In this document: one piece after another, positions 55,016-56,402 of the stretch
How positions within the stretch are numbered: the stretch's first letter is position 1
How the letters are laid out: every line of letters begins with the position of its first letter
Sequence record: OR906198.1
From: Escherichia phage BP32
Reading direction: 5' to 3' (one strand)
DNA length: 64,000 nt
The notes under the pieces: model-generated
The model's input: only the letters and a program-made list of their open reading frames with translations
Database searches by the model: none
Told to the model about the DNA's origin: nothing
Made by a program: the position numbers and the translations under genes

Positions 55016-55102
55016 GCGAGAATGGTCAAATTGGTAAAGGCACAGCACTTAAAATGCTGCGGAATGATTTCCTTGTGGGTTCGAGTCCCACTTCTCGCAC
55101 CA
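55016..55102 (+). tRNA. tRNA-Leu (anticodon TAA), type II, CCA encoded
   Basis: Acceptor GCGAGAA/TTCTCGC; anticodon stem CAGCA/TGCTG, loop CTTAAAA; long variable arm; T-loop TTCGAGT. Confidence 0.85.
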
Positions 55103-55107
55103 AATTT

Positions 55108-55181
55108 GCGGATATCGTATAATGGTATTACCTCAGACTTCCAATCTGATGATGTGAGTTCGATTCTCATTATCCGCTCCA
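55108..55181 (+). tRNA. tRNA-Gly (anticodon TCC), CCA encoded
   Basis: Acceptor GCGGATA/TATCCGC; anticodon loop CTTCCAA; T-loop TTCGATT. Confidence 0.85.
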
Positions 55182-55191
55182 ATTTAATTTA

Positions 55192-55265
55192 CTCCGTGTA
55201 GCTCAGTTTGGTAGAGCGCCTGATTTGGGATCAGGAGGTCCAAGGTTCAAATCCTTGTATGGAGA
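55192..55265 (+). tRNA. tRNA-Pro (anticodon TGG), no encoded CCA
   Basis: Acceptor CTCCGTG/TATGGAG; anticodon loop TTTGGGA; T-loop TTCAAAT; only 2 nt before tRNA-Ser. Confidence 0.8.
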
Positions 55266-55267
55266 CT

Positions 55268-55352
55268 GGAGGCGTGGCAGAGTGGTTTAATGCACCGGTC
55301 TTGAAAACCGGCAGTCGCTCCGGCGACTCATAGGTTCAAATCCTATCGCCTC
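55268..55352 (+). tRNA. tRNA-Ser (anticodon TGA), type II, no encoded CCA
   Basis: Acceptor GGAGGCG/CGCCTCC; anticodon stem CCGGT/ACCGG, loop CTTGAAA; long variable arm. Confidence 0.85.
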
Positions 55353-55359
55353 CGTAATT

Positions 55360-55437
55360 TCGCTGATTTAGCTCAGTAGGTAGAGCAACTCACTTGTAAT
55401 GAGAAGGTCGGCGGTTCGATTCCGTCAATCAGCACCA
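55360..55437 (+). tRNA. tRNA-Thr (anticodon TGT), CCA encoded
   Basis: Acceptor GCTGATT/AATCAGC; anticodon loop CTTGTAA; T-loop TTCGATT. Confidence 0.8.
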
Positions 55438-55438
55438 A

Positions 55439-55515
55439 GGCCCTGTAGCTCAATGGTTAGCAGCAGTCCCCTCATAAGGGAAAGGTTACCAGTTCAAATC
55501 TGGTCTGGGTCACCA
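55439..55515 (+). tRNA. tRNA with CAT anticodon (Ile-lysidine type or Met), CCA encoded
   Basis: Acceptor GGCCCTG/CTGGGTC with one mismatch; anticodon loop CTCATAA; T-loop TTCAAAT; the T4 tRNA at this position is annotated Ile. Confidence 0.7.
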
Positions 55516-55524
55516 AATTAATTA

Positions 55525-55611
55525 GGGGAGTTATCCCGTAGAGGTAGCGGTGTGGACTGTAAATCCATTGTCATTGCGACTCGGGTGGTTCGACTCCACC
55601 ACTCCCCACCA
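55525..55611 (+). tRNA. tRNA-Tyr (anticodon GTA), type II, CCA encoded
   Basis: Acceptor GGGGAGT/ACTCCCC; anticodon stem GTGGA/TCCAT, loop CTGTAAA; long variable arm; T-arm GGTGG-TTCGACT-CCACC. Confidence 0.7.
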
Positions 55612-55657
55612 ATTTATGACTCGTCGTGAGACGCTCAGTTCTTTATTAGGGACTGAT

Positions 55658-56323
55658 ATGCATTTTTATCTTTATAAAATAACAAATAAAATTAATAATA
55701 AAATTTATATTGGTGTGCATTCTACCGAAAATTTAGATGATGGATATATGGGTTCTGGTAAATTATTAAAAAGAGCCCAAGATAAGTATGGTATAGAAAA
55801 TTTTTCTAAAGAAATATTAGAGTATTTTGATGATAAAGAATCTATGCTTGAAGCCGAGAAAAATATTGTCACAGAAGAGTTTTTAAATAGACCAGATGTG
55901 TATAATTTAAAACTTGGCGGTGAAGGTGGATGGGACCATATAAATATTCCTGGGATGCTAAACCAGAAGAAAGATGCTAGCTTAAAAGGAGCTAAATCGT
56001 TTAAATCACGTTTTGAAAATGATATTTTACTTCAAGAAAAATATCGTAAAATTGGTTCAAATGTATTTAAACGTTTGTGGTCAACTCCTGAATACAAGGA
56101 AAAATTTTTAAATAATAGCAGATTTTTAAATAAGCATCATACTCCTGAAACTATTAATAAAATGAAAGAAATTCACGCTAAAAATAATCATCAGAAAGGA
56201 GAAAAGAATTCCCAATTTGGTATGATGTGGATTCATTCATTAGATGAAAAAGTTTCTAAACGTATTAAGAAAACTGACCCAATTCCAGAAGGATGGTTTA
56301 AAGGTCGAAAAATGAAATTTTAA
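55658..56323 (+). CDS. segB: GIY-YIG homing endonuclease (SegB-like) inside the tRNA cluster
   Basis: N-terminal GIY-YIG module YLYKITNKINNKIYIGVHS...GYMGSGKLL; start placed at the ATG (55658) after tRNA-Tyr, not the track's 55550 which overlaps the tRNA. Confidence 0.75.
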   Translation: MHFYLYKITNKINNKIYIGVHSTENLDDGYMGSGKLLKRAQDKYGIENFSKEILEYFDDKESMLEAEKNIVTEEFLNRPDVYNLKLGGEGGWDHINIPGMLNQKKDASLKGAKSFKSRFENDILLQEKYRKIGSNVFKRLWSTPEYKEKFLNNSRFLNKHHTPETINKMKEIHAKNNHQKGEKNSQFGMMWIHSLDEKVSKRIKKTDPIPEGWFKGRKMKF

Positions 56324-56326
56324 TTA

Positions 56327-56402
56327 CGGGGCATAGCTCAGAAGGAAGAGCAAGGACCTTCTAAGTCCTAGGTCGTAGGTTCGATCCCTACTGCCTCGAC
56401 CA
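56327..56402 (+). tRNA. tRNA-Arg (anticodon TCT), CCA encoded
   Basis: Acceptor CGGGGCA/TGCCTCG; anticodon stem AGGAC/GTCCT, loop CTTCTAA; T-loop TTCGATC. Confidence 0.85.

Follow-up and report, generated by a model that had tools for sequence, protein, structure and literature searches.

The closest described relatives of this locus are the tRNA regions of the T-even phages. In T4 (NC_000866, 70.9-72.5 kb) the gene order is Gln-Leu-Gly-Pro-Ser-Thr-Ile-segB-Arg, and in T6 (AP018814) it is Gln-Leu-Gly-Thr-Met/Ile-Tyr-segB-Arg. tRNA-Pro and tRNA-Ser are known from a dimeric precursor in which CCA is absent from both tRNAs and tRNA-Ser ends in UAA (PMC11143913); a review of T4 post-transcriptional control (PMC3014915) contains nothing on tRNA processing. 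The homing endonuclease SegB has its cleavage sites at tRNA T-loop motifs and brings about conversion of the T2L region (PMC2330249). In T6, SegB amplifies a 718-bp Tyr-segB unit, overexpression of tRNA-Tyr rescues the phage from the Septu defence system, and deletion of the tRNA-rich region sensitises the phage to Septu; T4, which is without tRNA-Tyr, cannot escape (PMC13096335). A single copy of the wild-type T6 Tyr gene alone did not defeat Septu, amplification or overexpression being needed, and T6 tRNA-Tyr was cleaved by Septu too (PMC13096335). Phages are also rescued from retron-Eco7 by phage tRNA-Tyr (PMC11555353). The only genes for which rescue from tRNA-Tyr-cleaving defences is described are those of T6, T5 and SP15 (PMC13096335, PMC11555353).

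The window (the whole stretch of DNA analysed, 64,000 nucleotides of Escherichia phage BP32, sequence record OR906198.1) carries eight tRNA genes between positions 55016 and 56402, predicted by ARAGORN as Leu-taa, Gly-tcc, Pro-tgg, Ser-tga, Thr-tgt, a tRNA with a CAT anticodon, Tyr-gta and Arg-tct. These genes, and all other features given coordinates below, lie on the + strand. The Rfam tRNA model exceeded its gathering score at all eight, with 54-73 bits (E 1e-9 to 5e-15) for every gene except tRNA-Tyr. The anticodons and coordinates proposed in a first-pass annotation were returned as the same set by ARAGORN and Rfam; the seven tRNAs it had packed within 600 bp were measured to span 596 bp (Leu to Tyr), and its placing of tRNA-Arg-TCT after an endonuclease gene agreed with a GIY-YIG gene at 55658-56323 between Tyr and Arg. 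CCA is encoded in six of the eight tRNAs (all except Pro and Ser). Three points had been missed: a tRNA-Arg allele unlike that of T4, the CCA on the CAT tRNA, and the overwriting of tRNA-Gln by a putative HNH gene.

The cluster sits between the trna.4-trna.2/ipI genes and e.8, the usual T4-like place, with flanks 94-98% identical to T4, and blocks of T4 homology (94-99%) cover trna.4-trna.2, Leu-Ile, segB and rnaD-rnaC-e.8. The neighbouring 24 kb are 96-98% identical to Tequatrovirus records, and the region was matched by 997 phage records, nearly all T4-like. Three hallmarks of T-even clusters were found: tightly packed same-strand tRNAs for A-ending codons, a Pro-Ser dimer with a 2-3 nt spacer and CCA on neither tRNA, and rnaD and rnaC downstream of tRNA-Arg, with a 116-aa ORF in between as in T2L. 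The cluster is an ordinary T4-like tRNA cluster in a mosaic version, with tRNA-Tyr present and tRNA-Gln destroyed by a putative nuclease gene. The region as a whole is very probably the Tequatrovirus tRNA and stable-RNA operon, a recombinant patchwork of alleles circulating among T-even phages; nothing was found against the T-even identification, and the weak points concern function. The tRNAs would be released from an operon transcript through cutting by host enzymes, the processing steps being those given in the literature.

tRNA-Leu(UAA) (55016..55102) and tRNA-Gly(UCC) (55108..55181) were found by both ARAGORN and Rfam, encode CCA and match T4 at 87/87 and 74/74 positions, respectively. 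tRNA-Thr(UGU) (55362..55437), also with CCA, has three differences from T4 (73/76) and matches phage GRNsp7 at 76/76. Between Gly and Thr lie tRNA-Pro(UGG) (55192..55265 by Rfam, 55192-55266 by ARAGORN) and the class II tRNA-Ser(UGA) (55268..55354 by Rfam, 55267-55355 by ARAGORN), both identical to T4. By the Rfam limits, tRNA-Pro ends at 55265 with discriminator A, tRNA-Ser starts at 55268 and the spacer is CT (2 nt). The letters after Pro are CT-GGAGG and those after Ser TAATTT, with TAA next to the gene end, so neither encodes CCA. The pair had been noted earlier as 2 nt apart and CCA-less in the manner of the T4 dimer, and base-for-base identity to T4 bears this out: judged by its sequence, and with processing steps taken from the literature, Pro-Ser is the classical CCA-less dimer, tRNA-Pro forming the 5' half. 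Because CCA is lacking, maturation of the dimer would call for trimming at the 3' ends and for CCA addition by the host enzyme.

ARAGORN found no tRNA-Gln in the whole 64-kb window; none had been visible to the first-pass annotation, whose description of T4 as having tRNA-Gln at the head of the cluster and no tRNA-Tyr agrees with the T4 reference order. T4 homology here covers trna.4, the spacer and the first 9 nt of tRNA-Gln(UUG) (TGGGAATTA, 54388..54396), and ends there. The 9-nt stump abuts the ORF of a putative HNH endonuclease gene (202 aa, 54401..55009) that stands in place of tRNA-Gln from nt 10 to about nt 71; tRNA-Gln is absent because this 0.6-kb cassette overwrote it. The translation of the ORF contains an HNH-like motif (DHIDGNNKNH...LLCPNCH) and shares 35% identity with an HNH endonuclease encoded on an 8.2-kb record of T5; the Pfam HNH match (17.3 bits, E 0.005) lies below the cut-off of 21.4 bits. 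Loci that are homologous elsewhere differ in whether they carry the cassette, whose borders are sharp and lie within tRNA-Gln: it is absent from T4, T6, T2L, RB3 and GRNsp7, and is 99-100% identical in Pu-Krd-SF5, JEP6, SH-2 and Lv5cm. tRNA-Gln was missing in all four HNH-bearing relatives that were fetched. T4, T6, T2L and RB3 have tRNA-Gln(UUG) at the cluster head, a T-even hallmark not found here; since the HNH cassette occurs in 63 phage records as a known Gln-less variant, the missing gene does not exclude membership of the T-even operon. Upstream of tRNA-Leu, a scan for a promoter that might feed the cluster after the HNH insertion gave 21 weak sites, none of them convincing (shuffled sequences: 13.9 +/- 4.3). 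The putative HNH nuclease might home to the tRNA-Gln gene or its neighbourhood in rival T-even phages; HNH at the head and SegB near the tail would then bracket an array with an anti-defence tRNA-Tyr and together drive its inheritance, possibly its amplification. We offer this tentatively, as a possibility rather than an expectation.

Codon frequencies in the ORFs of the window were expressed relative to an E. coli K-12 sample. Enrichment was 3.0-fold for TTA, 4.1-fold for GGA, 2.0-fold for CCA, 4.0-fold for TCA, 3.7-fold for ACA, 6.4-fold for ATA and 9.4-fold for AGA. Seven of the tRNAs (Leu-UAA, Gly-UCC, Pro-UGG, Ser-UGA, Thr-UGU, Ile-CAU as a reader of AUA, and Arg-UCU) correspond to these A-ending codons, all of them 2- to 9-fold more frequent than in the host. 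From the codon counts and classical T4 work we infer that the seven non-Tyr tRNAs top up scarce host tRNAs for an AT-rich phage.

The tRNA with the CAT anticodon (55439..55515) is identical to T4 tRNA-Ile up to the discriminator (74/74) and encodes CCA, as do its counterparts in T6, GRNsp7 and Pu-Krd-SF5 but not that of T4. ARAGORN and many GenBank records label it Met, a name given from the anticodon alone. That it is an elongator tRNA-Met is quite improbable, as its body is that of a T4 gene annotated tRNA-Ile, and the sole E. coli matches, though weak (39 nt, E 0.05), are all annotated tRNA-Ile. Those matches number only five, so the Ile call rests on the identity to T4 tRNA-Ile, which we take from the established T4 literature to accept isoleucine and to decode AUA after modification of C34, a behaviour that also argues against Met. 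The 6.4-fold excess of ATA in the phage over the host fits the pattern of the other tRNAs and points the same way.

tRNA-Tyr(GUA) (55525..55611; CCA encoded; found by ARAGORN and Rfam) had been described as a type II Tyr-like tRNA not expected from T4. Its class II form was borne out by the ARAGORN drawing and by cloverleaf comparison. T4 is indeed without the gene, but the gene is not unusual, being carried by T6, T2L, RB3 and 613 phage records. Identity is 86/87 to T6 and RB3, 98% to T2L, 85/87 to Vequintavirus Murica, 78% to a T5-like phage and 61% to E. coli tyrT. A host origin was rejected on this last value and on the absence of chromosomal E. coli matches at E <= 1; 273 places on E. coli plasmids match. 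The gene belongs to a phage-borne lineage of tRNA-Tyr common to T6, T2, rV5-like and T5-like phages and to E. coli plasmids of 72-109 kb. The variable arm is the same in all phage copies and is 2 nt longer than in host tyrT/tyrV.

Some features of this gene would suit a decaying or non-functional pseudogene carried along with segB: an Rfam score (30.3 bits, E 0.003) only just above the cut-off of 29, an atypical D-arm (a D-stem mismatch or shifted register), two 92-96% identical copies in other phages annotated 'tRNA-OTHER' with one labelled 'tRNA-Pseudo-GTA', and a T6 tRNA-Tyr that looks less stable than the host's (PMC13096335). We nevertheless consider a pseudogene extremely improbable. The 7-bp acceptor stem, discriminator A (A73), CCA, GUA in a 7-nt loop, perfect T-arm and class II variable arm are intact, and in six homologs, drawn from four phage groups, five pairs of the cloverleaf are retained by compensatory double changes. 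The sequence is conserved at 96-99% over hundreds of genomes, and the T6 copy, with one difference (a G-C pair to G-U), is detected by northern blotting and rescues infection (PMC13096335). As far as homology and predicted folding can tell, tRNA-Tyr is a genuine tRNA of class II whose homologs are the T6/T5 genes, not host tyrT.

By analogy with the experiments on the 86/87-identical T6 gene, the job of tRNA-Tyr here would most likely be the replacement of tRNA-Tyr cleaved by host defences, as a spare supply when Septu or retron-Eco7 (PtuAB) cleaves tRNA-Tyr. Its GUA is also the anticodon of the host's sole Tyr isoacceptor, so the gene adds no decoding capacity. The gene could instead be kept just to boost translation in a tyrosine-rich phage (mostly UAU), with no link to defence. 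It lies within the same operon as the codon-supplement tRNAs, and Tyr codons number 42 per 1000 in the window ORFs versus 26 per 1000 in the K-12 sample (TAT 2.3-fold); a total Tyr demand 1.6 times that of the host leaves room for plain supply. Against this, TAC, the exact cognate codon, is not enriched (0.8-fold), T4 does well without a Tyr gene, and the near-identical T6 gene and T5-type genes have been tied experimentally to escape from Septu and retron-Eco7 (PMC13096335, PMC11555353). Supply with no defence link is thus rather unlikely, although supply and replacement after cleavage are compatible and not mutually exclusive roles.

The gene between Tyr and Arg (55658..56323) encodes a 221-aa GIY-YIG homing endonuclease (Pfam GIY-YIG 26.8 bits, cut-off 22.6). 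It is 97.7% identical in nucleotide sequence to T4 segB from codon 6 onward and 97% identical to that of T6, and stands in the same position; with its predicted N-terminal GIY-YIG domain, it is to all appearances the ortholog of T4/T6 SegB within the tRNA cluster. A hairpin is predicted at 55635..55656 (9-bp stem, fold z-score -2.3), covering a purine-rich stretch that immediately precedes the start codon of segB and may serve as its ribosome-binding site. As published for T4 and T6, SegB would cut the tRNA genes of rival phages and bring in itself and its neighbours, and the two free-standing endonuclease genes (SegB and the putative HNH) may in this way shape the mosaic. The T6-derived SegB motif RAWTSGAAC/GTTCSAWTY occurs three times in the region (55158, 55414, 57008) and 11 times in the window, and is not informative alone. 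A microhomology search around the Tyr-segB unit, 718 bp as amplified in T6, returned only the 7-nt TTAATTA at 55518 and 56320, too short and AT-rich to interpret.

tRNA-Arg(UCU) (56327..56402; CCA encoded; found by ARAGORN and Rfam) is the T2L/RB3 allele, matching T4 and T6 at 48/76 positions, T2L and RB3 at 97%, and SH-2 at 76/76. Nuclease evasion via the anticodon loops of the three Arg(UCU) alleles was unsupported, the loops all being CUUCUAA when the sequences were read by eye. The 116-aa ORF that follows (56419..56769) is a homolog of the T2L ORF 'trna.2' (95% nucleotide identity); it had no Pfam match and is absent from T4 and T6. A homolog of rnaD (species 2 stable RNA, 56767..56885) aligned with the annotated rnaD of T4, T2L and RB3, at 78-94% identity to the fetched relatives, and is followed by a homolog of rnaC (species 1 stable RNA, 56892..57029), 97-99% identical to rnaC of T4, T2L and RB3. 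A ninth ARAGORN call, 'tRNA-Lys(ttt)' at 56937-57030, was rejected, as it falls in the 3' half of rnaC and arises because that half is tRNA-like. In the ARAGORN drawing only its acceptor and T arms pair, the D and anticodon arms being poor; its best Rfam match is tRNA-Sec (16 bits, E 2.2), and it was not called in T4 or other relatives. The window has a 1-nt deletion there. The RNA gene block ends at a terminator-like GC-rich hairpin with a T run (57080..57103), conserved in sequence in T2L and RB3.

An annotation of the region should call the CAT tRNA Ile, ignore the 'Lys' within rnaC, record tRNA-Arg as the T2L allele and record Gln as lost to insertion of the putative endonuclease gene. The stretch from Ile through Tyr to segB is the same as in T6, so the Tyr-segB adjacency that T6 amplifies against Septu (PMC13096335) is present here. 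As this pair is amplifiable in T6 for escape from Septu, it predicts a host-range property, of relevance to therapy and to defence-system screens.

The cluster resembles that of T4 in genomic position, gene order, identical Leu, Gly, Pro and Ser genes, the body of Ile, segB, and rnaD with rnaC; T4 differs in having Gln, another Arg(UCU) allele and no CCA on Ile, and in lacking Tyr, the 116-aa ORF and the HNH gene. With T6 it shares Ile(CAT) with CCA, a 9-nt spacer, tRNA-Tyr, a 46-nt spacer and segB, whereas T6 keeps Gln in place of the HNH cassette, has no Pro or Ser, carries a T4-type Arg and lacks the 116-aa ORF. T2L and RB3 (AJ880101, AJ884578; Brok-Volchanskaya 2008) are alike in Tyr (98-99%), Arg(UCU), the T2L ORF trna.2 and rnaD-rnaC, but have no segB, a tRNA-Asn between Tyr and Arg, another CAT tRNA ('Met', 50/77) and an intact Gln. 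Replacement of Gln by HNH is shared with Pu-Krd-SF5 and other Tequatroviruses (ACG-C40, phiD1, HY03, slur03, JEP6). Pu-Krd-SF5 agrees in the order of its genes (Leu through Tyr, segB, Arg) and differs in a T4-type Arg, another Pro allele and the absence of the 116-aa ORF; JEP6 and Lv5cm differ in having no Tyr and a third Arg allele. By module, then, Leu, Gly, Pro and Ser match T4 at 100%, Ile is of the T4/T6 type with CCA, Tyr is 99% T6 and RB3, and Arg with the 116-aa ORF is 95-97% T2L. The exact combination of HNH, T4-type Pro-Ser, T6-type Ile-Tyr-segB and T2L-type Arg-trna.2 was in no single record among those fetched. It carries little weight as a discovery: a phage unlike the T4 textbook map is normal, because the cluster is among the most recombined spots in T-even genomes, and every part of it has already been described in T6, T2 and hundreds of sequenced relatives.

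ARAGORN called nine tRNA genes on the + strand of the whole window, and eight of these are the genes of the first-pass annotation, with unchanged coordinates and anticodons: tRNA-Leu-taa (start 55016), tRNA-Gly-tcc (start 55108), tRNA-Pro-tgg (start 55192), tRNA-Ser-tga (start 55267), tRNA-Thr-tgt (55362-55437), a CAT-anticodon tRNA (start 55439), tRNA-Tyr-gta (start 55525) and tRNA-Arg-tct (56327-56402). The Rfam tRNA model agreed at 8/8, all above the gathering score, with seven at 54-73 bits and tRNA-Tyr at 30.3 bits against a cut-off of 29. The upstream seven, Leu through Tyr, extend over 596 bp. 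tRNA-Pro ends in ...TGGAGA and is followed by a CT spacer, tRNA-Ser and TAATTT; direct reading thus bore out the earlier statement that neither gene of this pair encodes its CCA, which is present in the other six tRNAs. The CCA-less Pro-Ser dimer of T4 carries a UAA trailer and needs 3' trimming, CCA addition and RNase P (PMC11143913), and by sequence identity the same processing should apply to the window pair. An ARAGORN call of a 94-nt tRNA-Lys(ttt) at 56937-57030 was rejected: it lies inside the rnaC homolog and corresponds to the acceptor and T-arm of species 1 RNA, which resemble those of a tRNA. The call was made in the window only, and was absent in T4 and seven relatives. Compared with T4, T2L and RB3, the window rnaC homolog is missing 1 nt (CCTTTT-AAAAT).

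The region matched 997 phage records, nearly all T4-like (Escherichia, Shigella, Salmonella and Yersinia hosts), and the upstream 24 kb, with baseplate, neck and fibritin genes, was 96-98% identical to Tequatrovirus genomes; these matches assign the window to a T-even-type phage. No record identical to the window was found. The T4 reference reads Gln-Leu-Gly-Pro-Ser-Thr-Ile-segB-Arg-rnaD-rnaC, without Tyr, as stated in the first-pass annotation. Nucleotides 53328-54396, comprising trna.4, trna.3, trna.2, a spacer and the first 9 nt of tRNA-Gln (TGGGAATTA, 54388-54396), are 97.7% identical to T4, the following segment (54397-55012) has no T4 counterpart and holds a 202-aa ORF, and the Leu-to-Ile segment (55013-55512) is 99% identical. 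Leu, Gly, Pro and Ser are identical to T4, Thr has 3 differences and the CAT tRNA matches T4 tRNA-Ile at 74/74. Two of the Thr differences, C27A and G43A, leave A mismatched with A at the top of the anticodon stem, and the other is U45G; this allele also occurs in GRNsp7 and has the highest Rfam score of the eight (72.9 bits). Divergence begins at the Ile discriminator base, after which T4 reads TATTTT... without CCA and then segB, whereas the window reads CCA-AATTAATTA-tRNA-Tyr, 46 nt and then segB (55658-56323; Pfam GIY-YIG, 26.8 bits; 97.7% to T4 from codon 6 on). A 9-bp hairpin (55635-55656; -14.1 kcal/mol, z -2.3) is predicted over AGGGA, 5 nt before the segB start, and is reminiscent of the reported sequestration of the ribosome-binding site in the T4 endonuclease gene mobE. 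The window tRNA-Arg(UCU) is a different allele from that of T4 (48/76), and 3' of it lies a 116-aa ORF (56419-56769) absent from T4. T4 homology resumes at 56769 (93.9%), with rnaD (about 56767-56885) and rnaC (about 56892-57029) homologs, a terminator-like hairpin (57080-57103) and e.8. A 176-aa ORF (57632-58162) without a Pfam match occupies the T4 e.7 position, and no T4 nucleotide homology was found across 57635-58188.

The 202-aa ORF (54401-55009) has an HNH-like motif, sub-threshold in Pfam (17.3 vs 21.4 bits), and its cassette takes the place of tRNA-Gln nt 10 to about 71. T4-like phages account for all 63 records with the cassette, and copies in Pu-Krd-SF5, JEP6, SH-2 and Lv5cm are 99-100% identical; tRNA-Gln is missing in 4/4 fetched carriers. 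Distant homologs of the protein from T5-like, Gordonia and Salmonella phages (protein-search matches H165, H169 and H170) overlap or abut annotated tRNA genes. Outside T4-like phages, the closest of the listed matches whose alignment covers over half of the protein came from an 8.2-kb T5 record; this HNH endonuclease is 35% identical, with 84% of the protein aligned.

Following the first-pass proposal of a codon-usage comparison, frequencies per 1000 codons were compared between the window (53 ORFs, each 150 aa or longer; 18,015 codons) and E. coli K-12 (42 annotated genes; 14,790 codons). Cognate codons of the seven classical tRNAs were clearly enriched in the phage: Leu TTA 3.0-fold, Gly GGA 4.1-fold, Pro CCA 2.0-fold, Ser TCA 4.0-fold, Thr ACA 3.7-fold, Ile ATA 6.4-fold and Arg AGA 9.4-fold. 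The CAT tRNA is labelled Met from its anticodon by ARAGORN and in many records; the T4 gene with an identical body is annotated tRNA-Ile, and classical T4 work showed its product to accept isoleucine. The ATA enrichment fits an Ile identity. In RB3, JEP6 and Lv5cm this slot holds another CAT allele, unrelated to the first (50/77). For Tyr the ratios were 0.8 (TAC), 2.3 (TAT) and 1.6 in total, so that the exact cognate codon is not enriched, and the anticodon is that of the host's only isoacceptor.

In the ARAGORN drawing, tRNA-Tyr ends in discriminator A and CCA; its acceptor stem has 7 bp, the anticodon GUA sits in a loop of 7 nt, the variable arm has 3 bp, the T arm is perfect and the D-stem contains one mismatch. 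In an RNAalifold consensus of six homologs (window, T6, RB3, Vequintavirus Murica, an E. coli plasmid and a T5-like phage) the cloverleaf was retained, five pairs surviving changes on both sides; the D-stem lies one or two bases off canonical register, which accounts for the low Rfam score. Identity of the gene to host tyrT and tyrV is only 61%, and its variable arm, TTGTCATTGCGACTCG, is the same in 6/6 phage-type copies and exceeds the host arm by 2 nt. Among 5,426 complete E. coli genomes there was no chromosomal match, and 269 held 273 plasmid matches at 88-93% identity (72-109 kb for the eight plasmids listed). Taken together, the distance from the host genes, the longer invariant arm and the plasmid-only matches place tRNA-Tyr in a phage-borne lineage mobile among unrelated phages and speak against a recent host capture. 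In the one plasmid inspected (NZ_CP024264.1, 72 kb, 3921-4471), an Asn-Tyr-Thr-Ser cluster adjoins DNA ligase and integrase genes, which suggests that the Tyr-bearing plasmids are phage-plasmids.

Each non-T4 module has close relatives. The Ile-CCA-Tyr-segB order is exactly that of T6; tRNA-Tyr (in 613 phage records) is 86/87 to T6 and RB3 and 98% to T2L; the Arg allele (in 468 records) is that of T2L and RB3 (97%); and the 116-aa ORF is the T2L ORF named trna.2 (95%). Among T4-like phages the slot after segB holds at least three strongly divergent tRNA-Arg(UCU) alleles, the T4 type (comparison records L001, L003, L005) matching the window's at 48/76 and a third type (L006, L008) at 64/77, all with the anticodon loop CUUCUAA; two alleles each were also seen for the CAT tRNA (50/77) and Pro (63/75). 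Shigella phage SH-2 (1002-2940) retains only HNH, Leu, segB, Arg and ORF116, and this deletion of the Gly-to-Tyr block shows that the array is trimmed freely. Every module and every junction type is already known; the exact combination may be unrecorded, because all modules together were found in 0/9 fetched relatives and no record in the first search covered >95% of 54900-57100.

The tRNA region was described as mosaic in a 2008 paper on SegB: segB is missing from T2L, RB1 and RB3, which have Met, Tyr, Asn and Arg genes together with two ORFs, and SegB cleaves at T-loop motifs of tRNA genes, frequently directly after CCAR, and in mixed infection turns the T2L region into the T4 form (PMC2330249). 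Two of the three window breakpoints lie at tRNA gene ends, one immediately 3' of A73 in Ile and one separating the stop codon of segB from the first nucleotide of Arg, and the other is within the first 15 nt of segB; this distribution fits the cleavage pattern of SegB. TTAATTA (7 nt) directly flanks the Tyr-segB module (55518-55524 and 56320-56326); it is AT-rich and may be chance. The first-pass observation is upheld and its interpretation supported. The cluster represents a T-even tRNA operon variant that was known before, and the features in which it differs from T4 (a Tyr gene, no Gln, a different Arg allele and an encoded CCA on Ile) are standard polymorphisms that arise through homing-endonuclease-driven exchange.

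Published experiments account for tRNA-Tyr better than codon supply does. In T6, Septu cuts tRNA-Tyr in the variable loop, overexpression of T6 tRNA-Tyr rescues infection, deletion of the tRNA-rich region sensitises the phage, and amplification of a 718-bp Tyr-segB unit in escapers depends on SegB, UvsX and UvsY; T4, without Tyr, gives no escape (PMC13096335). Rescue of infection under retron-Eco7 has likewise been shown for tRNA-Tyr genes from T5-like phages (PMC11555353). The window gene differs from that of T6 at a single position, an anticodon-stem pair that is G-C in the window and G-U in T6, and lies in the same place beside segB; by analogy it most likely has the same role as T6 tRNA-Tyr.
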